A DNA stretch of 64,000 nucleotides from Patescibacteria group bacterium (GCA_043817315.1 JBDRGY010000016.1:69445-133444), one strand, 5' to 3'; counted from the first letter of the stretch, positions 4,767-53,333 are shown. The notes: a model not told the origin generated them from the sequence alone. A program made the numbers and translations.

Positions 4767-6485
4767 ATGACAGCTAAACAAGCAAGCTCGAGGAGAACAA
4801 CCGCTAAGAAAAAAAGGTTCGATAAAACTAAATTGAAAATTATTTTCTTGGGCGGTTTAGAAGAAGTCGGCCGTAATATGATGCTGATGGAATACGGATC
4901 GGACATTATTATTATTGATATGGGTTTGCAATTTCCTGAAGAAGACATGCCCGGCATCGACTACATTATCCCTGATATATCATACCTCAAGGGCAAAGAA
5001 AGCTGGATTAGGGGAGTTATTATCACCCATGGCCATTATGATCATATCGGTGGTATTCCTCACTTACTGCCCAGATTGGGCATGCCCCCAATCTATACAG
5101 GCCGCCTCAGCCGGGCCATCATTGAAAAAAGGCAGACCGACTACAACCATTCCAAGAAAATTAAGATAAACACGGTTAACCAAAATGATACTTTGAAATT
5201 AGGCATCTTCAAAGTCGGCTTCTTCCATGTTAATCACAATATCCCCGACTGCTTGGGGGTTTATATCGATACTCCAGTGGGGAGATTCCTGCATACCGGT
5301 GATTTTAAATTTGACCACAGCCCGGTTAATGACCCGCCAGCTGATATCGCCCAAATCGCTAAAATCTGCGAGGGGGGAATCGTAGCCGCCATGGTAGACA
5401 GCACCAACGCCGATCAAGAGGGCAATTCCATTTCCGAAAAAACTATCTTTGATACTTTAGATGGCATATTTGATAAGGCAGACGGCCGCATTATTGCCGC
5501 CACTTTTTCTTCCTTGCTATCACGTATCCAACAGATTTTTACCCTTTCGGAGAAATACGGCCGCAAAGTAATAGTAGAAGGTTATAGCATGAAGACCAAT
5601 GTGGAAATTGCCATCAAGTTAGGCTATCTTAAGGTCGCTAAGAACACCCTGATTTCCATCAAACAGTTGAGAGACTACCCCAATGATAAAATCACCATCA
5701 TGTGTACTGGAGCCCAGGGTGAAGACAACGCAGTGCTGATGAGAATTGCCAACAAGGAGCATCGTCAAATCAGAGTGGATAATGGGGATACCATTATTTT
5801 CTCTTCTTCGGTGGTTCCTGGTAACGAAAGATCAGTTCAGGGGCTAAAAGACGTTTTGTTCAAACAAGGTGCTAAAGTAATTCACTACAAGATGATGGAT
5901 GTTCACACCGGTGGACACGCCAGGCAGGAAGATTTGAAAATGATGTTCCGCTTGATCAACCCCAAATACTACATGCCCATAGAGGGCAACTACTTTATGC
6001 TAAAGATCCACGCCGATCTGATTGCCAGCCTGGGCATGCCTCCAGAGAATATCTTTGTGGCTGAAAACGGCCAAGTGGTTGAAGTCGATAAACAAAAAGC
6101 AGTGCTCACTAAAAAGAAAGTTCCCACTGACTACGTCATGGTCGACGGTCTGGGTGTAGGTGATGTCGGTCATGTTGTTCTTAGAGACCGCCAGATGATG
6201 GCCGCTGATGGTATGTTTGTGGTCATTGCCGTTATCGATAAAAAGAGGGGCGGACTAGCTCGCGATGTGGACGTTATCTCGCGGGGCTTTGTCTATATGA
6301 AGGGCTCTGATCAGTTAATCCAGGAAGCCAAGAAAAAGGCTCGTGAGATTATCAACAGGCACGCTCACGGAGAAGCGCCTAATTGGACCTACATCAGAAA
6401 CCGTCTTAGAGACGATATCGGCCAGTTTCTTTTCAAAAAAACGCAGCGTCGACCCATGGTACTGCCGGTAGTTACCGAGATATAA
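4767..6485 (+). CDS. rnj: Ribonuclease J (metallo-beta-lactamase / beta-CASP RNase)
   Basis: HGHYDH zinc motif, IFLGGLEEVGRNMMLMEY N-terminus and about 570 aa length, typical of RNase J. Confidence 0.9.
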   Translation: MTAKQASSRRTTAKKKRFDKTKLKIIFLGGLEEVGRNMMLMEYGSDIIIIDMGLQFPEEDMPGIDYIIPDISYLKGKESWIRGVIITHGHYDHIGGIPHLLPRLGMPPIYTGRLSRAIIEKRQTDYNHSKKIKINTVNQNDTLKLGIFKVGFFHVNHNIPDCLGVYIDTPVGRFLHTGDFKFDHSPVNDPPADIAQIAKICEGGIVAAMVDSTNADQEGNSISEKTIFDTLDGIFDKADGRIIAATFSSLLSRIQQIFTLSEKYGRKVIVEGYSMKTNVEIAIKLGYLKVAKNTLISIKQLRDYPNDKITIMCTGAQGEDNAVLMRIANKEHRQIRVDNGDTIIFSSSVVPGNERSVQGLKDVLFKQGAKVIHYKMMDVHTGGHARQEDLKMMFRLINPKYYMPIEGNYFMLKIHADLIASLGMPPENIFVAENGQVVEVDKQKAVLTKKKVPTDYVMVDGLGVGDVGHVVLRDRQMMAADGMFVVIAVIDKKRGGLARDVDVISRGFVYMKGSDQLIQEAKKKAREIINRHAHGEAPNWTYIRNRLRDDIGQFLFKKTQRRPMVLPVVTEI

Positions 6486-6514
6486 ATACTTTCTTTCAGG
6501 CCGCCTGGGGGGGG

Positions 6515-6543
6515 TTGACTATTTGCTATTTTTGCGCTATAAT
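6515..6543 (+). promoter_or_regulatory. Near-consensus sigma70 promoter (TTGACT, 17 nt spacer, TATAAT)
   Basis: ttgact (6515-6520), 17-nt spacer, tataat (6538-6543). Confidence 0.6.
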
Positions 6544-6655
6544 ATATATAGTGATAGGTAGAATAATTAACTTAAATTTTTTGTTTTACCGGGAAGCCAA
6601 AACAAAAATAGAATTACCTATTTTTGGGGCTTGTTTTCAGAATATTAAATATAAT

Positions 6656-6678
6656 GACCGTCTGGGACGGTCTTTTTT
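6656..6678 (+). terminator. Intrinsic terminator / attenuator hairpin in the leader of the 1463-aa gene
   Basis: GACCGUC-UGG-GACGGUC followed by UUUUUU. It lies 47 nt upstream of the ATG at 6726 and about 105 nt downstream of the promoter. Confidence 0.6.
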
Positions 6679-6725
6679 ATATATAAATTAAGGTAATATT
6701 AGTTATTAATTAAAGGAGAAAAGCT

Positions 6726-9700
6726 ATGAAGAAACTAAAGAAGACCAAAATAATAGTCAGTACTTTGACTGTTTTGGCTTTAGTGGTCCCTTTGGCTATG
6801 GGTAATTCCATCCAAACCGCCCAAGCGGGGGACGACAGTCGCATTTCAGCTGTAGCTGTGGCTACTGGTTATTCTAAGACGGCCGGCGCCACCACCAGCT
6901 ATACTGTCACTTTCACCGTGCCGTCTGGACATCCAATTAATGTCGGTACCAGCGTCAGTCTGCGTTTTCAGGGATCAGGTTGTCCCTGGGACATTGACTG
7001 GATGCAATGCCAATTTGATTTAGAAAATGCCACTGTTGCTACCGGCAGTTTCACCATTGCCGATCAGTGGTCAGAGGGCAGCGAAGGTATTGGTTTTGCA
7101 GCCAACGCCAAGTTGTCAGCAGGCAGCTACACTGTCACAATCAGTAATGTAGGAAACCCGGCGGTAATCGGAGGACTTTACCAGATCTTTGGCTCGACTC
7201 GAGTCCAAGACGATCCACCCGAAGAAGGAGTAGAACAACCAATGACTCCATCCAACGCTCTGTTGCTGGGCAATGTGATAGTGACCGGTACCGTCTATGA
7301 TACTGATGGCACTACTCCCATGCAGAACGTCTGGGTGCAGCTACACTCTAATGATTGGAGTGTCGATTTTGGCAGCAATACCAACTCCAACGGTCAATAC
7401 GCCTTAATTGGTGCATTGGCTAACGGTACCTATACCATGGAAGCCCATGCCCCCTGGGAAAACACTGATGTCCTCTCGCCTGATCCAAAAACTGTTAACT
7501 ATAGCGGCACTACTTTAACCAGTAACTTCGCCATGATTGCCCCGGTCAAGACTATCAAAGCATATGTAAAGTATAATAACGGTGTTCCCTGCACCTCAGC
7601 CCGGGTAAATGCCAACAAAAGAGACGGTGGTGGTGGCTCAGGAGCAAGAGTTGATGCTAACGGTCTAGCTCAATTCAGCGTCTCCGGCGGCAACTGGGAA
7701 TTAAGACCAGAATGCGGCTGGGATCCGGAAAACAACCAACCGTTAAATTGTAACTGGGCCTTCAACCAACCAGGACAACAGGTCAGTTTCACTAATGACA
7801 GCTCTACAGAAACCAAAACTGTCAATCTGACTGTTCAACAAACCAACGCCAAAATAAAAGGAACCGTTAAGCTGCCCAATGGCACTTTGCTTTCCAACGG
7901 ATTTGTTGATATCAGATCGGGCGGACCAGACGGCGGTGGTGGTAACGGCAGCGGTCTCTGGAACGGTGCATTCGATGCTAACGTCATGGCTGGTAATTAT
8001 AAAGTATCTGTCCATCCTGACGACCAAAATCCTGATCTGGCCAGATATTATTCTGATGAGGTGGATGTCAATGTGGGAGTAGGAGAAACGAAAACTCTCA
8101 ATATCACCATGAAACAAAAGACTTCAAAGATCACCGGTACGGTTAAGAACAAAACTACCGGAGCCGGTGTAGAAGGAGTCTGGCTGAATACTTGGAAAAG
8201 AGAGGGTCAAGGTTGGTCCAATACTCAAAGTGGTGCCAATGGCGCTTTCACCTTCTGGGTATCAGCTGGTGATTGGGAGTTTAATGTTGACACTCATCGC
8301 CGCGACGAAAATCAAGCCACCACCTATATTCCCGCTGACAGTAAAATGCACAGCGTGTCTGTCGGTAACAATGAAACAGTCTCCGGCATGGTCATCAACG
8401 TCCAAGAGGCTGATGCCAACATCAGCGTCAAAGCTGTTGATAAAAATGGTGCCGCCATTACCGAAGATACCTGGGGCTGGGCCTTCTGTCGCAAAAAAGG
8501 CCAAGGCTGGGGCCCTGGTAATGAATTTGGTTCCGGCATGCAGCAAGGAACAGCCAATATTCCTCTAATCGGTGGCTTTACCTACATCTGTGGTATGCAC
8601 AACCCTCCAGATAGTCCTTTTCTTCTAGAAGAGGATAAAGAAGTAACTGTGGCCGCTGGCCAAACAGCTCAAGTCAATCTTACCCTCTTGGAACCAGATT
8701 CAGCCATCATCGGTTGGGTCAAAGACCAACAGGGAAATATAGTAAAAAATATGGGTAACCAGGCTGAAGTGTTTGCGGTGGAAGCTGGCGGAAACTGGGA
8801 ATGGCGACCAGGTAGGCTAAATGATGACGGCAGTTACGAAGTAAATCTCCTGGGTGGCCCTGACAAAATATATATGGTCGGCTTTCGCGTCTGGGGCATG
8901 GAGAAGGGTGAATCGGAATTTGTGGAAACCCATCCTGAACCCGATGACTCAATCAGGGTGCCGGCTAATTCTGAAGTAACCAAGATCATTACTGCCTTTA
9001 GGGCCGACACCTACATCTCCGGTCAAGTGCTAGATCCTAGCGGTAACCCCATGGGTAACGTCTGGGTAGGCGCTGATAACCACCAAGCTATGGAAGGTAA
9101 GATCAAGGGTGATTTTGAAGGCGGTAAAGTGTTCAATACTGGGACTGGAACCAGGCCAGATGGCACCTTTAAGCTCAATATCGTCTCTGGCACTTTTAAT
9201 CTGTATTCCGGTACGCCCCCAGAATTCCAGAATGACTTCATGTCCCCCAGAGAAAGACAAGTTACTGTGACCTCTGCCTCCCCGGCCGAAGGAATCGTTA
9301 TGCAATATCGACAGGCTGACGCCTTTATCACGGCTGCGGCCACTCTGCCTAGTGGTTCTTCTCCGATGTTCGGTTGGTGCCATGCTTGGAATCCGGAAGG
9401 CGGTCATTCCGGCCGAGACATCTTTGACGGCCAACCCGCCAGAATTCCTCTAACTGCTGGCACTTGGTTTGTCGGCTGCGACACTATGGATCCGGAAACC
9501 AACAAATTCTACCGCTCCGAAGAACAAAGAGTCTCTGTAGCAACTGGCGATGACAAGTCATTGTCTTTCAGCATGACCGAAGAATCATATACAATTCCTG
9601 AGCCGTTCAGCCAAACCTTTACTGCTTCTCAGCTCAACGTCTTCACCTTGCCTGACGGTACTACTGTCACTCTGCCGGCCAATGCCGCTGGCAGCGAAGA

Positions 9701-11117
9701 GGGTAACTATCAATTTATGGGCACTCCTGGCACTAACTTCTGGATTACTGAAGATTCTGAACCAGCCTGGTACACTTGGGATTTAGAAATTCTTGACCCC
9801 AACAATCAGGTAGCAGAACAGCTGCAATCCAATGCCACTATCTGCATGCCCTTAAAACAGGACGTTATGGACGAAAAAAGCTTAACTGTTGATGATATCT
9901 TTCCCAAGTATTGGGATACAACCGCTTCCGCCTGGAAAACTCCTGAATCAGCCATTATCAACGAGGCTGAGGGTCAGGCCTGTCTACAGGTATCTCACTT
10001 TACTGAATTCGCTCTAACCACTCAGGCTTCTTTAGCAGGCGCTGGAGGAACAAGCGGTCCAGCTGATATCTTGGCTACCCCGGCTTCCGGCGGTGGTCCT
10101 CAGATCATTATTGCTAATGAAGACGGCAGCACAGTTTCTAACTTCTTCGCCTATGATTCCGGGCTGCGAATTGGTCTAACCGCTGCAACCGCTGATGTCG
10201 ATGCTGACGGCGAGACCGAAATAGTAGTCGCTCCGGGAGCCGGAGCCGGTCCTCAAGTCCGCATCTTCGATCATCAAGGTAATGTAGAAAGACAATTCTT
10301 CGCCTATCCCGAACATATCCGCTCTGGCATCTATGTCACCACCGGTGATGTCAACGGAGACGGCACGGATGATATCATCACCTCCACTCGAGAAGGTGCC
10401 GGACCACAAGTAGCTGTCTTTGACTCTGACGGCAATACCATCTCTCGTTTCTTCGCTTACGCCGAAACCTATCGCAATGGTTTCAGCGTTACCACTGGTG
10501 ATGTTAACGGCGATGGGTCTGATGAAATAGTCGTGGTGCCTGACGGCAGCGCCGGACCGCAAGTCCGCGTCTTCGACTATCAAGGCAATGAATTGGCTTC
10601 TTTCTTCGCCTACGGTGACACTGTCAGAGGTGGTTACAACGCCACCACTGGTGATGTTAACGGCGATGGCGTAGCTGATATCGTCATTACCCCCAAAGCT
10701 GGTCTAGGTCCTCAAGTAGCCATGTTCACCGGCACCGGAACCTTAATTGACCGTTTCTTCGCCTATGCGGAAAGTTTTCGAGGCGGTATTAACGTTTCAG
10801 TCGGTGATACAGATGGTGATGGCAACAATGACATCGTGGCTTGTCCCGAATCAGGTGCTGGCCCCCAAATCAGAGTCTTTGACACTGATGGTTCGGCCAA
10901 ATCACAGTTCTGGGCTTATGCTTCCACCTTACGCGGTAAATTCACCTCATTCGTTGCTGATCTCAACGGAGACGGCACCAATGAAGTGGTAACTGCTCCG
11001 GGTGAAGGTATGGGACCGCAGGTCAGAACTTTTGATAGAAACGGAAATCCTCTATCACAGTTCTTCACTCACCACACCGGCTTTCGAGGTGGCCTCAACA
11101 TGTTCCCGGCTTACTAA
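6726..11117 (+). CDS. Giant secreted surface protein: signal peptide, multiple CarboxypepD_reg/Ig-like beta-sandwich domains, C-terminal array of 8 FG-GAP-like propeller repeats
   Basis: N-terminal Sec signal (MKKLKKTKIIVSTLTVLALVVPLAMG...AQA); RBS AAAGGAG. Repeated G-[TK]-V-x-d-x-G-x-P...NG-x-Y modules. The C-terminal 340 aa or so carries 8 repeats of consensus G-x-GPQVRVFD-x-x-G-N-x(4)-FFAY-x(3)-[FY]RGG-x-x-V-x-x-GDVNGDG-x-D-E-I-V. Confidence 0.8.
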   Translation: MKKLKKTKIIVSTLTVLALVVPLAMGNSIQTAQAGDDSRISAVAVATGYSKTAGATTSYTVTFTVPSGHPINVGTSVSLRFQGSGCPWDIDWMQCQFDLENATVATGSFTIADQWSEGSEGIGFAANAKLSAGSYTVTISNVGNPAVIGGLYQIFGSTRVQDDPPEEGVEQPMTPSNALLLGNVIVTGTVYDTDGTTPMQNVWVQLHSNDWSVDFGSNTNSNGQYALIGALANGTYTMEAHAPWENTDVLSPDPKTVNYSGTTLTSNFAMIAPVKTIKAYVKYNNGVPCTSARVNANKRDGGGGSGARVDANGLAQFSVSGGNWELRPECGWDPENNQPLNCNWAFNQPGQQVSFTNDSSTETKTVNLTVQQTNAKIKGTVKLPNGTLLSNGFVDIRSGGPDGGGGNGSGLWNGAFDANVMAGNYKVSVHPDDQNPDLARYYSDEVDVNVGVGETKTLNITMKQKTSKITGTVKNKTTGAGVEGVWLNTWKREGQGWSNTQSGANGAFTFWVSAGDWEFNVDTHRRDENQATTYIPADSKMHSVSVGNNETVSGMVINVQEADANISVKAVDKNGAAITEDTWGWAFCRKKGQGWGPGNEFGSGMQQGTANIPLIGGFTYICGMHNPPDSPFLLEEDKEVTVAAGQTAQVNLTLLEPDSAIIGWVKDQQGNIVKNMGNQAEVFAVEAGGNWEWRPGRLNDDGSYEVNLLGGPDKIYMVGFRVWGMEKGESEFVETHPEPDDSIRVPANSEVTKIITAFRADTYISGQVLDPSGNPMGNVWVGADNHQAMEGKIKGDFEGGKVFNTGTGTRPDGTFKLNIVSGTFNLYSGTPPEFQNDFMSPRERQVTVTSASPAEGIVMQYRQADAFITAAATLPSGSSPMFGWCHAWNPEGGHSGRDIFDGQPARIPLTAGTWFVGCDTMDPETNKFYRSEEQRVSVATGDDKSLSFSMTEESYTIPEPFSQTFTASQLNVFTLPDGTTVTLPANAAGSEEGNYQFMGTPGTNFWITEDSEPAWYTWDLEILDPNNQVAEQLQSNATICMPLKQDVMDEKSLTVDDIFPKYWDTTASAWKTPESAIINEAEGQACLQVSHFTEFALTTQASLAGAGGTSGPADILATPASGGGPQIIIANEDGSTVSNFFAYDSGLRIGLTAATADVDADGETEIVVAPGAGAGPQVRIFDHQGNVERQFFAYPEHIRSGIYVTTGDVNGDGTDDIITSTREGAGPQVAVFDSDGNTISRFFAYAETYRNGFSVTTGDVNGDGSDEIVVVPDGSAGPQVRVFDYQGNELASFFAYGDTVRGGYNATTGDVNGDGVADIVITPKAGLGPQVAMFTGTGTLIDRFFAYAESFRGGINVSVGDTDGDGNNDIVACPESGAGPQIRVFDTDGSAKSQFWAYASTLRGKFTSFVADLNGDGTNEVVTAPGEGMGPQVRTFDRNGNPLSQFFTHHTGFRGGLNMFPAY

Positions 11118-11137
11118 GACTTACAGAGCTTCAATAG

Positions 11138-11168
11138 AAAACTCCCCGCTGTAGCGGGGAGTTTTCCT
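11138..11168 (+). terminator. Intrinsic terminator after the 1463-aa gene
   Basis: AAAACUCCCCGC-UGUA-GCGGGGAGUUUUCCUUU. Confidence 0.7.
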
Positions 11169-11174
11169 TTGCCC

Positions 11175-11203
11175 TTGAAAAAGAGTCAAAAATGTGCTAT
11201 AAT
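11175..11203 (+). promoter_or_regulatory. Near-consensus sigma70 promoter (TTGAAA, 17 nt spacer, TATAAT)
   Basis: ttgaaa (11175-11180), 17-nt spacer, tataat (11198-11203). Confidence 0.6.
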
Positions 11204-11271
11204 GAGTACATAATAAATCTTCCAGGTCTACATGGAGGAACTTATAACTAAATACCATTCAACAAGATAAC

Positions 11272-11297
11272 ACCACATTTTTGTGGTCTTTTATATT
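11272..11297 (+). promoter_or_regulatory. Terminator-like hairpin inside the 5' leader of the 1725-aa gene (candidate attenuator)
   Basis: ACCACA-UUUU-UGUGGU followed by CUUUUAUAUU, 23 nt upstream of the ATG at 11320. An upstream hairpin CUUCCA-ggucuaca-UGGAGG sequesters a GGAGG motif. Confidence 0.45.
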
Positions 11298-11319
11298 CAA
11301 AAATTAATAATCAATAACT

Positions 11320-14300
11320 ATGTCAATCATTAAAAAAATCGTCTCCATTATCACTGTAATTTCCTTGGTAGCTCTGCTCTATCCCCTGGCTCCTCCTCAG
11401 CCTCAAACGGCCAGAGCAGCCACCCCGGGGAAGTTTACTGATGTATCAGTAACAGCGAGTAATTATACGTACGATGCTGCTGCTAATATTACTTTTACCT
11501 TTACTACAGCCAACTCTCTTACTGCCGAGAATGATGTTATCCGTTTTTATTTTGAGAATTTCAGTGATTGGGCCAACACCTTTACCTTAAGCAGTATTAC
11601 TGACGATGGTGGCTCCATTGATTACATGGAATACAAAAGCACCAATTATATTGAAGTTTACTTAGTTAGCTCCCCTGTTGCAGCCGGTTCAGTGGTTGAA
11701 GCTGTTTTTGCCGTTACTCACAGAGACATTGTTGGTTATGAAAGAGTAGGCATTGTTTCTTTCAGCCCGGACGGTGGGGGCACTGCTTATGAAGGATGTA
11801 CTGATGCCGGAGGGGGTGGTGCTTGGGATGATTGCACCCCTTATTATGTTATAGTGCCGGTTGGTACTCCGGAAGTAAAGGGCCGGGTTTTGGGACCAAT
11901 TGGTACGGCGGATGTCAACAACGGTATTTTTGAAACTAATGTCAATCTCTGGAACAGCGGTGGTTATTGGAATTGGGCCGCTACCGATCATCTCGGTTAT
12001 TTCTATTTCTACCAAGTGCCGACTAGTTCATGCGAGCTGGACTTTAGTAAGCCCTGGGATGCTGGTGTTGCTTACTCTGCTCCTGATAATCAAACTACAA
12101 CAGTAACTAGCGGCTCTACCACTGATATGGGGATTATCAGATACAATCTAGCTTCTGCAACTGGCATCGTAAAAAGAGAAGATAACGGGCAAGCTCTTCA
12201 AGATGTTAATATAAATTTCATGAACATTCCCATGCCCCCTACTAATACCGACGAGAATGGCCGATTCTATCTACCGCGTGTTGATCCGGGAACTTATTAC
12301 GTAATGATCGAAAAACCCTGGGGAGAAGCTGGTGAGGGCTTGGTTAATCCTGAACCTATCTCTGTAACTGTAACGGCCGGCTCTACAACTAATATGGGTA
12401 CCATTTATCTGGAATCAGCCAACAAAACAATCAAAGGTACTGTCAGACATCCTAACGGCAATCCGGTAACCGATGCCCAGATTGGTTGCAACACCCCCAT
12501 GGGCGGCGGTTGGTATTCAGCTACTACCAATGGCGCTGGCTACTATGAATTATTGGTCGGCAAGGGCCACTGGATGTGTTGGGTAGAACATGATTATAGT
12601 ATTCCTGATCACCAATTCAACTGGGTTTATTTTGACATGCCTTCGGGAATAACTTTTTCTGCAGACAATGCAGTAACCGAAACTAAAACTCAAAACTATA
12701 CCGTAACTGCCATTGATTCGACCATCCGTGGGCGAGTATTAAAGCCCAACGGCAGTCCTCTGACGGGCGAACCAGTTAATGTGGAAATCTTTAATCAAAC
12801 CGGTGGCGGTAATTGGATTCAAGTGGATTCAGCTACCGGAGCTTTTTCAGTCGGTGTACCGGCCGGTACTTATCAGGTAATGGTCAACATGTGGAGTGAT
12901 AACTGGGGCGGACCCAGCCCACAAACAGTTACTGTCTCAGCCAATTCTACTTATAATATGGGTAATCTCTATCTTCTGCCAAAAAGTGCCTCTATCTCTG
13001 GTACGGTGTCGGATACAGACAGGGCCGGGCTAAATAATCAATTTGTTGATTGCTGGGTACAGAATGAGTGGGGCAAATGGTCCTCCGGCAACACGAATAG
13101 TAATGGAGACTTCAGCTTTGCTGCCTTTGGTGGTTCTACCTATATGTGCAATCCCATGACCAATATGGGAGGTTGGGGAGGAGAGAATGAAGAGACTTAT
13201 GTTTATTTGGGTGCTCCTCAATCTGTTAATCTTCCTAATGTAACTAGCGCAGCTACCGGCGTAGATTTTGAACTGACCCGAGCTGACGCTACTATTAATG
13301 TAACCGCAGTTGACAGTAACGGAGATCAAATAAACGATATCTGGGGTTACGCTTTTATAGGTATGGGTGACATGATGGGCCCAGGCATGGGTGGCACTCC
13401 AATTGACGGTGGTACCGGTAGCTTCAAAATCCCCTCGGCTCAGTGTCCTGCCAGTTCTCCCTGTTACTTGAGTATTTCTATGCCTCCAGGCCAAGGAGCT
13501 GATTACTCGCCAGCTGGAGCAGTCTCTTTTTCAGTAACAGCTAACGGCACCGCTAATGTAAAAGTAGCTATGGTTCCTAATGATGCCACTCTGACAGGTT
13601 ATATTGTTGACAGTAATGGTGATGCTATAACCGGGGTCAGTGCTGTCGTCTTCGCTGACAAATTCGCAACAATGTCTTTCTTCGAATCTTGGGTAAATAT
13701 TGCTACCGGTCAATACACTATGAATACAGCTCCTGGAACTTATACTCTAGGCTATTTTGTTGATAAATCCACTGGCTATTTAGCCAGTGGGATGACTGAT
13801 AACGAAGTAACTACTGTCTCCGGTCAATCTGTCACCAAGAATTTAACTTTGGCCGAAATCGACTCCTGGATTACCGTTTCCGTCAAGGCACCCAACGGCG
13901 GCCCTATGCCCGGTGCTTTTGTTGACGCCTCGACTCAATCAGGTTTGGGAGAAATTCATGACGGCCCCATGATGGGCCCTGGCATGATGATGGGCCCCAT
14001 GATGGGCCCTGGCATGATGGGTGAAATGACCGGGGCAGATGGTACTGCTACTATTGGTTTGCCCGGCGGATCTACTTATTATGTCTCAGCTTCCCTGCCC
14101 CCTGAAATGAGCTACATCAACCCTGCCAAGCAGGCTGTAACTATAGAATCCGGGGAAACGGCAACCCTTACTTTACAATTCAGAGAATCAGATGCCACTA
14201 TTTATGGCACGGTGACCAAAGATGGCACGGCTACCTATGCCGGTGTCTATGCCTATTCTGATACTGGCGGCTTTACCCAAGATTTTGCCTGGAACGGCGC

Positions 14301-16497
14301 CTATTCTCTAAATGTTACCCAGGGCGATAACTGGCATGTTATTACTAAAGCTCAAGTAGGCAATGATTATTATTCCAGTGGTGAAAAAGTAGTAACAGTC
14401 GATGAGGCCATGGAAACACTTAATTTAGAATTAAGTTTAGCCGTGGCTAATATCCCTGATCCAGTCACTGCTACTTTTACTTGCTCTAATCCGGCGGTAG
14501 TGGCTTTTGCCGACAACAGTGTCACCGTAAACCTACCGGCCGGAGCTCTGTCCGCTAGCCAAGAAGAAACTTGTAAGATTACCCTTACCCCTCAGCCCCT
14601 ACTGCCCGATACTGCCGAAAGAAAAGTATTTAGATTCGGAACAGAAATCGTTGGTTATGTTGAAAATGCAGAAAAGGAAGATCAATTTAATTCCAGTGCT
14701 ACGGTCACTATCTGCTGGAATGCAGAAGCCATGGAAGCACTTGGCTTAACTATAGATAATTTTAATGGTAGTTATTGGGATGAAAGTGCTGCCTCTTGGA
14801 TGGGCACCAATAATTCGACATCGGATGAGGATAATAATTGCATAACCTTCCAAGCTAATCACTTTACTGACTTTGCTATCACTTCAGCTGAAATTTCAGC
14901 TCCCCGGATCACTGTTACTAGTCCAGAGGATGAAACTACAACTATAACGGCAAATTCAATAGTGGTTGAGGGCACGGTTTCTGACGTCAACGCTGATCTG
15001 ACCATCGCCTTGGACGGTACTTCAATTGGCGCAGTATCAATTGACTCTGCCACCGGCGCCTTCTCAGAAACAGTCACAGATCTATCTATCGGCACTAATA
15101 CCATTACAGTTGATGCTGAAAACGGAGTAGGAACGGCTGCTACCGTCTCCAGGACTGTAACTTACGATGCTGCTGGTGAAGGAGATCTGGGCACTGTTAC
15201 CGGCGTTGAATTATCACTGGCTGCCATGCCTTACGGTGACGGAGGCCCTCAAATCAGGCTATTCGACAAAGAGGGCACTGCTATCGGTACCTTCTTCGCT
15301 TATAGTCAAGATCTGGTTGGTCAATTCCAAATGGTCTCGGCCGACTTAGATGGCGATGGAGCCAAAGAGATTATCACCTCAACTGGTGAAGGATTTGGTC
15401 CTCAGATTAGAGTGTTCAAAGCTGACGGCACCTTGCTGGATACTTTCTTTGCCTACCAAGAATCATTCCGAGGTGGTGTTGATCTGGCCTTAGGAGACAT
15501 ATCCGGAGACGGCAACATTGATTTGGTAACCAAGCCGACTCAGGGCGGCGGGCCCAATGTCCGAGTCTACCAATGGGATACCGCTACTCATTCCTTCGAG
15601 CTCCTGGATTGGTTTATGGCCTTTAATGAAGGTTTCCGGGGAGAAATCAACTGGCTACTAACTGATGTGGATAATGATGATGCCGCAGAGATAATCATGG
15701 CTCCCAAATCTCAGGGTGGGCCCAATGTCAGAGTCTACCAGTACAATGGAAATGCCATGGAAGTAAAAGATTGGTTTATGGCTTATGATGAAAATTTCCT
15801 GGGCGGTGTCAATATCCTGGCTGGCGATGTAGATGGAGATAATATTAAAGAAATCATTACCACTCCCCATCAACAAGGCGCCCCCAACGTTAGAATCTAT
15901 CAGTGGAATACCGCTTCCGAACAATATGAAGTGCTCGATTGGTTCTGGGCCTTTCAAAACTCCTTCCGCGGTCAATTCAACACAAAAATTGCCGACGTCA
16001 ACGGTGACGGCAATAAAGACATCATCGTGGCTCCGGCTGAAGCGGGCGGACCCAACGTCAGAGTCTATACCTACAACACAACTGACGAAATTGTTGAGCT
16101 GATTGACTGGTTCTGGGCCTATCAACAGAACTACCTGGGTGGTGTCAATCTGGACATAGCTGATCTGGATGGTGATGGTAATAAAGAAATTATCACTACC
16201 CCCAATGCTAGCGGCGGCCCCAACATCCGGGCCTATGAATACAACCCTGATGATGGAGCTTTTGAAACATTGGATTGGATAATGGCCTATCATGATACTC
16301 ATCGGGGCATGATTGAGACCCAAGTAACTGATTTAGACGGAAACGGTGACAGTGAATTGATAGTTGCACCCTTAACTAATGGTGGTCCCAATGTCAGGAT
16401 CTATAATTATGCTGATGGTGATCTGCAGCTAGACAACTGGTTTTGGGCTTTTGCCGAAACCTTTGAAGGTGGTGTCAACATCCAAACTCTGTATTAA
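11320..16497 (+). CDS. Giant secreted surface protein: signal peptide, several CarboxypepD_reg-like beta-sandwich domains, Met/Gly/Pro-rich low-complexity tracts, C-terminal array of about 9 FG-GAP-like repeats
   Basis: Signal peptide MSIIKKIVSIITVISLVALLYPLAPPQPQTARA. Modules such as GRVLKPNGSPLTGEPVNVEIFNQ...GTYQVMV. Tracts GMGDMMGPGMGG and GPMMGPGMMMGPMMGPGMMGEM. C-terminal repeats GGGPNVRVYQ...DWF[MW]A[FY]...[FL][RG]GG[VI]N...D[VL]DGDG..EII..P, about 58 aa each. Confidence 0.8.
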   Translation: MSIIKKIVSIITVISLVALLYPLAPPQPQTARAATPGKFTDVSVTASNYTYDAAANITFTFTTANSLTAENDVIRFYFENFSDWANTFTLSSITDDGGSIDYMEYKSTNYIEVYLVSSPVAAGSVVEAVFAVTHRDIVGYERVGIVSFSPDGGGTAYEGCTDAGGGGAWDDCTPYYVIVPVGTPEVKGRVLGPIGTADVNNGIFETNVNLWNSGGYWNWAATDHLGYFYFYQVPTSSCELDFSKPWDAGVAYSAPDNQTTTVTSGSTTDMGIIRYNLASATGIVKREDNGQALQDVNINFMNIPMPPTNTDENGRFYLPRVDPGTYYVMIEKPWGEAGEGLVNPEPISVTVTAGSTTNMGTIYLESANKTIKGTVRHPNGNPVTDAQIGCNTPMGGGWYSATTNGAGYYELLVGKGHWMCWVEHDYSIPDHQFNWVYFDMPSGITFSADNAVTETKTQNYTVTAIDSTIRGRVLKPNGSPLTGEPVNVEIFNQTGGGNWIQVDSATGAFSVGVPAGTYQVMVNMWSDNWGGPSPQTVTVSANSTYNMGNLYLLPKSASISGTVSDTDRAGLNNQFVDCWVQNEWGKWSSGNTNSNGDFSFAAFGGSTYMCNPMTNMGGWGGENEETYVYLGAPQSVNLPNVTSAATGVDFELTRADATINVTAVDSNGDQINDIWGYAFIGMGDMMGPGMGGTPIDGGTGSFKIPSAQCPASSPCYLSISMPPGQGADYSPAGAVSFSVTANGTANVKVAMVPNDATLTGYIVDSNGDAITGVSAVVFADKFATMSFFESWVNIATGQYTMNTAPGTYTLGYFVDKSTGYLASGMTDNEVTTVSGQSVTKNLTLAEIDSWITVSVKAPNGGPMPGAFVDASTQSGLGEIHDGPMMGPGMMMGPMMGPGMMGEMTGADGTATIGLPGGSTYYVSASLPPEMSYINPAKQAVTIESGETATLTLQFRESDATIYGTVTKDGTATYAGVYAYSDTGGFTQDFAWNGAYSLNVTQGDNWHVITKAQVGNDYYSSGEKVVTVDEAMETLNLELSLAVANIPDPVTATFTCSNPAVVAFADNSVTVNLPAGALSASQEETCKITLTPQPLLPDTAERKVFRFGTEIVGYVENAEKEDQFNSSATVTICWNAEAMEALGLTIDNFNGSYWDESAASWMGTNNSTSDEDNNCITFQANHFTDFAITSAEISAPRITVTSPEDETTTITANSIVVEGTVSDVNADLTIALDGTSIGAVSIDSATGAFSETVTDLSIGTNTITVDAENGVGTAATVSRTVTYDAAGEGDLGTVTGVELSLAAMPYGDGGPQIRLFDKEGTAIGTFFAYSQDLVGQFQMVSADLDGDGAKEIITSTGEGFGPQIRVFKADGTLLDTFFAYQESFRGGVDLALGDISGDGNIDLVTKPTQGGGPNVRVYQWDTATHSFELLDWFMAFNEGFRGEINWLLTDVDNDDAAEIIMAPKSQGGPNVRVYQYNGNAMEVKDWFMAYDENFLGGVNILAGDVDGDNIKEIITTPHQQGAPNVRIYQWNTASEQYEVLDWFWAFQNSFRGQFNTKIADVNGDGNKDIIVAPAEAGGPNVRVYTYNTTDEIVELIDWFWAYQQNYLGGVNLDIADLDGDGNKEIITTPNASGGPNIRAYEYNPDDGAFETLDWIMAYHDTHRGMIETQVTDLDGNGDSELIVAPLTNGGPNVRIYNYADGDLQLDNWFWAFAETFEGGVNIQTLY

Positions 16498-25387: not shown

Positions 25388-25771
25388 ATGAAATGTGAAA
25401 TTGTTTCTGGGCCAGTCATCGTTGAAAAAGATAAAGTACTGTTGGTTAAAGAGGGCAATGATAGAATCTGGAAATTCCCGGGAGGTAAAGTAAAAAGCGG
25501 TGAAAGCTTGGAGGAAACTTGTCGCAGAGAGGTTAAAGAAGAACTGGGTGTTAATTTGAAAATCATTAAACCGCTAAAGCCGCTACTGGTTTACCGAAAG
25601 GCCAAGACTATTTTTTCTATTACCTATCTGGCTAAACGCCTGGGCAAAATAAAACCGGGTCAACAGATCAAAGAATATAAATGGTTTGATTTAAACAAAC
25701 TACCCCCCGAAGCTGGTGAAAATATTAAACCAGTAATCAAGGCCTACATAAAACATGCAAAAACTAAATAA
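25388..25771 (+). CDS. NUDIX hydrolase
   Basis: Nudix box GGKVKSGESLEETCRREVKEELGV. Confidence 0.8.
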   Translation: MKCEIVSGPVIVEKDKVLLVKEGNDRIWKFPGGKVKSGESLEETCRREVKEELGVNLKIIKPLKPLLVYRKAKTIFSITYLAKRLGKIKPGQQIKEYKWFDLNKLPPEAGENIKPVIKAYIKHAKTK

Positions 25772-45532: not shown

Positions 45533-45552
45533 AAAAAAAACCTCATATGAGG
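45533..45552 (-). terminator. Intrinsic terminator on the minus strand about 200 nt downstream of rpoC; right boundary of the island
   Basis: Minus strand reads GAAAG-CCUCAUAUGAGG-UUUUUUUU. Confidence 0.65.
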
Positions 45553-45752
45553 CTTTCAAGCTATAGTCCGTCTATAACAAGACGTGCCGGTTTCGCTACT
45601 AGCTCCCTGCAGTTCAAGCGACCAGATACAAACTACAGTTCTTAGCCTCACCTTTTGTTTCCGTCGGAATAGCACTTCTGTCAATAGAACTTATCCACAG
45701 GGGTAACAAAAAACCCGATTTCTTAGCACTTTTATCAGGTTTCTTGACTATT

Positions 45753-52600: not shown

Positions 52601-53098
52601 CTCCAGCCAGGCTCCCCGGTTAGGAATTATCTTGGCTCCATAGCAGCGTCGGCCTCGAAAAAGTTCAGATGTAAAAAAAACACCAGCTGATCTGATTAGC
52701 TGGCTAACTACTACTCTTTCAATTCCGTTTATAATAAAAGTCCCTCTGTCTGTCATCAAGGGAAAATCACCAAGGTAAATTTCTTGTTCCTTGGCGTCAT
52801 TATTTTTTTTGTTAACAAGCTTGGCCCTTACTCGAATTGCTGCTTCGTAGGTCAGGTTCTTTTTCTTGGAAGTATTTTCGTCAAAGCGCGGATCATCAAA
52901 ATAATGATCGCCGAAATATAATTCCAGCTGCCTAGCGTAATCACGAATAGGAGATATCTCCTCTAACAGTTCCTTAAGCCCGTTTTTTAAGAACCAATCG
53001 TAAGAAGTCTTTTGGATCTCGATCAGGTCAGGTAAAGGAATGGCTTCGTGCAGCTTAGTAAAGTACCGACGCCCCTCTCTCTCGGTCTGAAATGACAT
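49631..53098 (-). CDS. rpoB: DNA-directed RNA polymerase subunit beta
   Basis: 1155 aa; conserved beta-subunit blocks ([13 protein letters not shown], rif-cluster region). Confidence 0.97.
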
Positions 53099-53333
53099 AA
53101 AAAATTCACTCCTTTTCTTAAGTAATCTTCTGAAAAGGAGAATAAGACTTTATTAAAGTCCTTAATTAGCAATATATATGCAATGTTGATAATAACAGAA
53201 TTACAAGGACTGTCAAGGGAATATTTTAGTAATTGAGTAAAGATTGCTAACCTTAGCTAAAAAAGGACAGTTTATTACTATTGTTTTGCTAAAATTAGCC
53301 AAATTACTAACAGGATATCCACATGGATATACC

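Follow-up and report, generated by a model that had tools for sequence, protein, structure and literature searches.

Among the described systems, the closest to the element analyzed here are the "ribo-regulators" reportedly found by Term-seq, i.e., 5′ leaders in which transcription terminates prematurely, and the classical attenuators. The element is most likely the 5′ leader of W1, a gene coding for a secreted protein of 1463 aa, and is located downstream of the RNase J gene (rnj) in a 64,000-nucleotide stretch of DNA from a Patescibacteria group bacterium (GCA_043817315.1, JBDRGY010000016.1:69445-133444; hereafter, the window). As in these systems, a promoter is followed by an untranslated leader of ~100 nt and by an intrinsic terminator placed tens of nucleotides before the start codon, and the expression of W1 is predicted to depend on read-through. 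Unlike the classical attenuators, the W1 leader has no antiterminator alternative, known effector, or Rfam family. It resembles a cyclic di-GMP-II (c-di-GMP-II) riboswitch of the same genome in that a leader terminator lies upstream of surface-associated genes but differs from it in that there is no conserved aptamer, the folding in relatives is not significant, and the geometry of the hairpin varies. A leader terminator placed before very long genes for surface structures also recalls the RfaH/ops, LoaP, and BglG/LicT-RAT systems. A short, conserved GGTAG-containing motif beside the likely transcription start site (TSS) is reminiscent of the ops element (GGCGGTAG); the motif is not ops, and the likeness serves as a lead only. 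No gene for a NusG paralog or antiterminator was seen among the open reading frames (ORFs) of the window and, unlike in the BglG/LicT-RAT systems, no RAT-like hairpin overlaps the terminator of the W1 leader.

To our knowledge, gene regulation in the Patescibacteria (candidate phyla radiation, CPR) is very poorly understood, and a search of the literature turned up neither leader RNAs nor native riboswitches described from this group. The giant, fast-evolving secreted proteins of these bacteria are prime candidates for host attachment. The interpretation toward which we lean is that the element is a cis-acting 5′ leader of W1 with a premature intrinsic terminator and that W1 is expressed via read-through, either leaky or relieved by a trans factor. 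If the leader terminator is indeed tied to the W1/W2 gene family, it would offer a testable handle on how the largest surface proteins are throttled or switched. The leader would then also represent a natural pair of strong promoter and terminator for emerging genetic tools.

Conservation of the promoter, leader, and terminator upstream of W1

Throughout, W denotes the lineage of the window itself, and the L-numbers (L001, L002, L082, L163, L166, etc.) denote comparison loci. Homologs were obtained from GTDB genomes and Joint Genome Institute (JGI) metagenomes scanned with RNase J, from a collection of 5.8 billion proteins, and from cluster look-ups. The homologous intergenic region was found in only four lineages (W/L001; L002/L164/L165; L082; and L163), in which RNase J is 83–86% identical. 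All other RNase J relatives (≤65% identity) were devoid of leader similarity by blastn or nhmmer. The W1 orthologs were 83% (L002) and 41% (L163) identical, with RNase J steady at ~85%. Between lineages, the four-fold degenerate sites of rnj showed an identity of 0.30–0.40 vs. an expected 0.27–0.28; since these sites are nearly saturated, conservation of the non-coding sequence is meaningful. The leader from promoter to terminator was alignable above shuffled controls (z = 3.7–7.0), and conservation of the spacer between the terminator and the ATG was marginal (z = 1.3–2.4). The layout of promoter, leader, intrinsic terminator, and gene, as recognized in the original prediction, was kept in all four lineages as well as in two paralogous leaders.

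The textbook sigma-70 promoter proposed upstream of W1 was found to be present, scoring 11/12 in the promoter scan (Table 1). Only four sites with at most one mismatch were detected in the 64 kb, each of them intergenic and directly upstream of a gene (W1, W2, rpoB, and the gene of an S8 protease). A promoter of 11/12 is located at the orthologous position in L002, L082, and L163 with a near-invariant sequence, GGGTTGAC...(T/A)(G/A)CGCTATAAT, and forms the best-conserved block of the intergenic region across lineages. The conserved AGGTAGA motif is located 1–5 nt past the TATAAT in the three other lineages, so it spans the likely TSS. In W, a lineage-specific insertion of 9 nt gives a second −10-like box, TATAGT (6547–6552), which preserves the ancestral spacing to the AGGTAGA motif; the combination TTGCTA-18-TATAGT scores 9/12 in the promoter scan of W. 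The promoter spacers of L082 (2107–2123), L163 (1444–1460), and L002 (4788–4804) were also observed to carry an inverted repeat of a T-run and an A-run (TTTTTG-C-CAAAAA, ATTTTT-C-AAAAAT), which is similar to the arms of the leader hairpin (TTTTTG/CAAAAA) and is lost in W. This repeat could be an operator or a DNA-curvature element.

The clean terminator, followed by a ribosome-binding site and an ATG 47 nt past the U-tract, was likewise present as described, and the terminator is conserved. Its stem of 7 bp, including five GC pairs, encloses a loop of 3 nt and is followed by U6 (−10.7 kcal/mol, z = −3.5). The arms in the four lineages (GACCGUC/GACGGUC, GACUGC/GCAGUC, GACCGC/GCGGUU, and GACUGC/GCAGUU) differ by compensatory pair changes, and a 6–7-bp terminator with U6–U8 is found in each of them (z = −3.5 to −4.2). 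No promoter-like site of at least 9/12 occurs between the terminator and the ATG in any of the four lineages. In L163 and L002, a separate rnj terminator is positioned upstream of the −35 box, and the leader terminator is hence not merely the end of rnj. A minus-strand reading was rejected, the T-runs being poor and a convergent gene being absent.

Folding of the leader RNA

The original prediction had included a long-range helix, AUAGGUA with UACCUAU, enclosing a perfect 10-bp hairpin (here, P2). The two complementary heptamers do exist, although at 6554–6560 and 6615–6621 and not at 6559–6565 and 6612–6618, and the probability of their pairing is about zero. The 3′ partner is absent from the leaders of L002, L082, and L163. 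The near-identical strain L001 differs from W by a single-nucleotide polymorphism only, T6619C, and this disrupts the helix. The helix could not be upheld as a conserved feature of the leader. The P2 hairpin fared better: both of its arms are present (6578–6587 and 6599–6608), and it recurs in the four lineages, where A-U replaces G-C at one pair and U-G replaces U-A at others, although it too has a probability close to zero in the structural ensemble of W. The geometry of P2 varies across lineages (loop of 9–20 nt and stem of 7–11 bp), and the weak P2 of L163 does not exceed chance (−3.8 kcal/mol, z~0). An interpretation of P2 as a palindromic DNA operator is unlikely, as the spacing of its arms varies between 9 and 20 nt.

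The originally proposed fold reached −19.3 kcal/mol vs. −33.3 kcal/mol for the minimum free energy (MFE) structure, and its leader helices had about zero ensemble probability. The dominant fold of W (p~0.99) consists of two hairpins, 6557–6566/6581–6590, followed by 6594–6598 and 6603–6611 paired with 6618–6626 and 6628–6632. The second of these (H2) excludes P2. Pairings of A-runs with U-runs like that of H2 are found in the relatives, but their positions are not clearly homologous. When folded without the terminator and compared with shuffled sequences, the leader gave z = −2.8 in W and −1.4, −1.1, and +0.4 in the relatives. The RNAalifold consensus retained only P2 and a 4-bp helix (−5.4 kcal/mol), with an unfavorable covariation term of +0.72. 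The terminator was misaligned by MAFFT and the consensus was weak; hand tallies were taken for the comparison of stems. Apart from the terminator, the relatives show no folding above chance level. Conservation in relatives places the promoter and the terminator above chance expectation and, to a lesser degree, the inner hairpin, but not the outer helix. No antiterminator was found in the leader, the most stable duplexes with the 5′ arm of the terminator having −4 to −6 kcal/mol and lying at places that are not homologous. If formation of the terminator is prohibited, 7.7–8.7 kcal/mol are lost without any compensating structure.

The same layout upstream of W2 and in L166

The gene next to W1, W2, codes for its paralog, and the W2 leader shows a comparable arrangement. 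In addition to an 11/12 promoter with an extended −10, it carries AUGGAGGAA (11232–11240) sequestered by UCUUCCA and a terminator-like hairpin (11272–11287) followed by CUUUUAUAUU, with 32 nt to the ATG at 11320. The sole database homolog of the N-terminal domain of W2, P0125 (50% identity), is placed in another organism and context, behind pgk on L166. In this locus (1805–2045; ENA ERZ1742239), the pgk terminator is followed by a 12/12 promoter and a leader of ~110 nt, in which GGGAGGA precedes a 9-bp terminator with U6 by 12 nt, and by 78 nt to the ATG. These 78 nt hold a further hairpin, CUCCGU-AUU-ACGGGG. Both W2 and L166 thus have the terminator of the upstream gene plus a leader terminator. 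The three paralogous leaders (W1, W2, and L166) have a common architecture, unrelated sequences, and no common fold. A protein search with aa 1–700 of W1 gave no matches, and W1 itself was also missed though it is in the collection. Since the search missed its own query for both W1 (aa 1–700) and W2 (aa 1–300), which are representatives of the collection, negatives for this protein family are unreliable.

A composite scan for a promoter, an interval of 30–200 nt, a terminator, and an ORF was carried out on 2.15 Mb (both strands) of Patescibacteria loci. It returned 10 matches, six of which were from the W1/W2 gene family; the W1 locus escaped detection solely owing to an open frame in its leader. 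Outside this family, the layout is rare in the ~1 Mb of related DNA. No further copy of the leader was found elsewhere in the window or in the 164 loci. Of all the arguments, the enrichment of the layout at the W1/W2 family speaks most strongly for a cis-acting leader, as opposed to an independent small RNA (sRNA) or an accident. A possible analogous leader terminator was noticed in another Parcubacteria locus, L020 (4855–5006), where a promoter (TGTGTTATAAT), a leader of ~60 nt, a hairpin with U7, and AAAGGAGGGG precede the ATG of a gene whose product, a large secreted protein, has no homology to W1/W2.

A purine-rich patch resembling the Shine-Dalgarno sequence

The leaders of L082, L163, and W2 contain a patch, UGGAGGAA, similar to a Shine-Dalgarno (SD) sequence, and that of L166 contains GGGAGGA. 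The patch is degenerate in L002 (GGGGGAAA) and in W, where the loop of P2 bears GGGAAG (6591–6596); by comparison with the other leaders, it has apparently decayed in both. The predicted pairing with a generic anti-SD sequence is −4.3 kcal/mol for the GGGAAG of W vs. ~−9.3 kcal/mol for the GGAGG of L082, L163, W2, and L166. GGAGG is rare in the true intergenic DNA of the window. Seemingly intergenic occurrences are explained by two small genes lying under the ORF cut-off used, at 2334–2556 (+; SecG-like membrane protein) and 25389–25755 (+; NUDIX-like hydrolase). A recognizable SD was found at only ~5 of the 35 gene starts in the window (W1, rpoB, lexA, a helix-turn-helix gene, and an acyltransferase), and translation initiation in this organism seems to be largely SD-independent. 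As most genes have no SD anyway, the idea that GGAGG replaces a missing SD is weakened.

A patch of this kind is known from the STAB-SD 5′ stabilizer of Bacillus thuringiensis cry3A, in which binding of the 30S subunit blocks RNase J (PMC4113751). The GGAGG of L082, L163, W2, and L166 is located 86–138 nt upstream of the start codon and, as in STAB-SD, would not serve initiation. The setting is also comparable, i.e., the 5′ untranslated region of a gene that is presumably expressed at a high level, in an organism possessing RNase J, the gene of which is immediately upstream. Unlike in STAB-SD, the motif of W is decayed to GGGAAG with its weak predicted pairing, the motif is separated from the coding sequence by a terminator, and a role in stabilization is hypothetical. 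A Patescibacteria-specific attenuation of giant surface proteins, in which the 30S subunit or a dedicated antiterminator bound at the SD-like patch overrides the terminator and maybe also shields the read-through mRNA from RNase J, can be put forward only as a doubtful proposition. If true, W1, W2, and their homologs would be co-regulated, and an SD-like patch would be read in a genome in which SD sequences are otherwise seldom used. As it stands, the W1 leader is a candidate cis-regulator that is restricted to one clade and belongs to a familiar type, and not a new principle; it would be of more interest if the patch recruits the 30S subunit or a dedicated antiterminator.

Known RNA families

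The leader had been described as a riboswitch or attenuator, or as an sRNA of ~125 nt. The leader with premature termination stood up to the analysis; the riboswitch did not, there being no Rfam match, conserved fold, or antiterminator. Gathering and permissive scans with Rfam 15 yielded no match for the window leader (all E-values >0.2) or for L002, L082, L163, and L166, and no family reached its gathering score. The best sub-threshold matches were FtrA (32 bits; gathering 134) and STnc370 (23 bits; gathering 54). Signal recognition particle RNA, 6S RNA, and other housekeeping RNAs were rejected, as they had no Rfam support and the CCGGGAAGCC loop was not conserved.

A full-length c-di-GMP-II riboswitch was identified in the same window at 45576–45659 (−), just after rpoC, with 69 bits (gathering 53.5). 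It lies upstream of an ORF of 259 aa coding for an unknown protein and of a gene for a C25-peptidase/FlgD_ig protein of 976 aa. The riboswitch is followed by a hairpin, AGCCUCAUAUGAGGU, with U8 (~45562–45535, −), indicating that leader terminators are within the regulatory repertoire of this genome. As this hairpin overlaps the mechanically assigned ATG at 45546, translation of the 259-aa ORF probably begins at a more downstream site.

A probable cis-acting leader with premature termination and its alternatives

In the proposed mechanism, the near-consensus sigma-70 promoter at 6515–6543 would start transcription near 6550. After an AU-rich leader of ~105 nt, RNA polymerase would meet the terminator at 6656–6678, and most transcripts would end as an RNA of ~125–130 nt. 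As no other recognizable promoter serves W1, its mRNA would arise only from polymerases reading through. The leader would then act as a promoter-proximal attenuator, setting and possibly regulating how much of the output of a strong promoter reaches a gene of 4.4 kb. Since the leader RNA has no built-in terminator/antiterminator switch, control would be exerted by basal leak or by a trans-acting factor. Such a factor would recognize the A/U hairpin with its purine-rich, SD-like GGA/GGAGG patch and could be an RNA-binding antiterminator or the 30S subunit.

Several observations weigh against this mechanism. The terminator looks strong in the folding models and is without an antiterminator, which leaves the source of enough read-through unexplained. 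The covariation is thin, with four lineages available. In two of the lineages, W and L082, a dedicated rnj terminator is missing (no plus-strand terminator was found between 6485 and 6656 in W), so the leader hairpin there also serves rnj. Moreover, a candidate promoter of 8/12, under the scan threshold, overlaps the terminator, with the conserved (A)TGAC at the base of the 5′ stem arm, a spacing of 17–18 nt, and TAATAT/GATATT; so weak a promoter might conceivably make the short RNA an independent gene.

The last point bears on the possibility that the element is the gene of a stand-alone, trans-acting sRNA of ~125 nt, with W1 transcribed from the weak promoter overlapping the terminator or with an sRNA function separate from read-through. 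A complete cassette from promoter to terminator, a U6–U8 tail typical of sRNA 3′ ends, a leader sequence under constraint, and the lack of an antiterminator would all suit such a gene. In addition, the TGAC at the base of the 5′ arm of the terminator is kept even where its 3′ partner GUC has changed to GUU, and the TAATAT/GATATT 17–18 nt further on could complete a weak promoter. However, no promoter reaching 9/12 follows the terminator in any lineage, and no Rfam sRNA family was matched. The element is always linked to genes of the W1/W2 type, and the layout recurs before W2 and L166 with unrelated leader sequences, which fits a cis element duplicated along with the gene family. As the layout travels with the family and no promoter follows the terminator, an sRNA gene is considered unlikely. 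An incidental arrangement, in which the hairpin is a terminator or insulator of rnj and the strong promoter leaks through without any regulatory role, would agree with the absence of another rnj terminator in W and L082, with leader folding in the relatives no better than chance, and with the confinement of the element to a few sampled lineages. It is difficult to reconcile with L163 and L002, where the leader terminator is kept despite dedicated rnj terminators, and with W2 and L166, where the upstream gene is already provided with a terminator. The leader is, moreover, conserved beyond neutral expectation and the layout is rare elsewhere in the composite scan, which together render mere accident very improbable.

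Control by the leader could also be exerted through translation, with a ribosome on a leader ORF blocking the terminator hairpin as in pyrBI-type or antibiotic-responsive leaders. The statement that the region contains no ORF does not hold literally, as a 58-codon ORF with a TTG start (6515–6691) starts within the −35 box and extends across the terminator; it is not beyond chance and not credible as a small-protein gene. Open frames of 12–46 codons with TTG/GTG starts are present in all leaders, and that of W2 comprises 12 codons (AUG at 11232–11234, stop TAA at 11268–11270), its stop being, by these coordinates, 1 nt ahead of the hairpin at 11272–11287. In L082, L163, and W2, a frame from a TTG, ATG, or GTG in the P2 region ends 4–6 nt before the terminator stem, and (A/G)UG-GAG-GAA is common to the ORF starts; the frames stop in the terminator loop in L002 and past the terminator in W and L166. 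Similar to pyrBI-type leaders, an open frame ends at or past the 5′ arm of the terminator, and U-rich tracts and a small hairpin with a U-run (P3) lie upstream. A missing SD is not disqualifying, since only 5 of 35 genes have one. Unlike in pyrBI-type leaders, however, the ORFs are indistinguishable from chance, comparable ones occurring in 21–65% of dinucleotide shuffles, and the start codons are poor. W and L002 have no RUG and depend on a TTG buried in a helix, and the GGAGG motif of L166 is not beside a start codon. The frame is not kept between W and L002 (1-nt indel), and the substitutions between W and L082 show no third-position bias. A leader peptide is retained as a minor, rather improbable alternative. 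A new class of ligand-binding riboswitch, in which the terminator serves as expression platform, is suggested by the position and layout, which resemble those of transcriptional riboswitches, by the good folding of the W leader alone, and by the c-di-GMP-II riboswitch that precedes other genes for surface proteins or proteases in this genome. It is contradicted by the lack of an Rfam match, by leaders in the relatives that fold no better than shuffles, by loop and helix lengths that vary freely, by the missing antiterminator with the uncompensated cost of blocking the terminator, and by paralogous leaders that share an architecture and not a fold. Such a riboswitch seems hardly tenable; judged from sequence and predicted folding, a self-contained riboswitch and a classical terminator/antiterminator attenuator are both unlikely. 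A cis-acting leader with premature termination remains the interpretation that we prefer.

Genomic context of the leader

The features of the locus are compiled in Table 1. The genes are arranged in the order rnj, W1, W2, and the gene for tryptophanyl-tRNA synthetase (TrpRS, trpS). The G+C content of the intergenic region at 6486–6725 is 30% vs. ~45% for the genome.

Table 1. Coordinates of features in the rnj–W1–W2 region, numbered from the first nucleotide of the window.
Feature	Position	Strand	Description	Basis
rnj	4767–6485	+	RNase J, 572 aa	Pfam RNase_J_b_CASP, RNase_J_C, Lactamase_B
W1 promoter	6515–6543	+	sigma-70-type; TTGACT (6515–6520), 17 nt, TATAAT (6538–6543); 11/12	promoter scan
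W-specific insertion	6544–6552	+	9 nt, ATATATAGT	alignments with relatives
Predicted short transcript/leader	6550–6678	+	~125–130 nt	promoter and terminator positions
Conserved motif	6555–6561	+	AGGTAGA	alignments
P2	6578–6608	+	U-rich/A-rich hairpin, 10 bp in W; TTTTTGTTTT (6578–6587), loop ACCGGGAAGCC (6588–6598), AAAACAAAAA (6599–6608)	
H2	6594–6632	+	hairpin of the MFE fold in W; AAGCC and CAAAAAUAG paired with CUAUUUUUG and GGCUU; excludes P2	
TACCTAT	6615–6621	+	3′ partner of the proposed long-range helix, W-specific; 5′ partner at 6554–6560	
Leader terminator	6656–6678	+	intrinsic; GACCGTC (6656–6662), TGG, GACGGTC (6666–6672), T6 (6673–6678)	
Spacer	6679–6725	+	AU-rich, 47 nt; ribosome-binding site AAGGAGA (6713–6719); ATG at 6726	
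W1	6726–11117	+	secreted protein, 1463 aa	signal peptide, CarboxypepD_reg domains, C-terminal FG-GAP repeats
W1 3′ terminator	11142–11165	+	CTCCCCGC, TGTA, GCGGGGAG, TTTT	read from sequence
W2 leader	11175–11319	+	11/12 promoter with extended −10 at 11175–11203	
W2	11320–16497	+	paralog of W1 (27% identity), 1725 aa	

The relatives of this RNase J belong to the Patescibacteria and are Parcubacteria-like. In most related Parcubacteria (loci L003–L161), rnj is directly 5′ of a gene coding for ~325 aa. The two giant genes (6726–16497) hence appear to be a clade-specific insertion between rnj and trpS. The product of ~325 aa in the relatives has the size of the TrpRS of W, a match of size only. 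The contig carrying L002, JAIWBS010000091.1, has been deposited as a metagenome-assembled genome of a "Pirellulales bacterium" but bears a tRNA-Leu/rnj/W1 locus of the Patescibacteria type with 86% identity in RNase J; it is probably mis-binned.

A further leader was observed upstream of rpoB (53096–53216, −), where a strong promoter, TTGACA-16-TATTAT, is accompanied by a hairpin, GACUUU-AAU-AAAGUC, and then a U-rich run. In this leader, a 9-bp anti-SD pairing of CUCCUUUUC (53140–53132) with GAAAAGGAG (53117–53109) would conceal an SD, of which this genome has only few.

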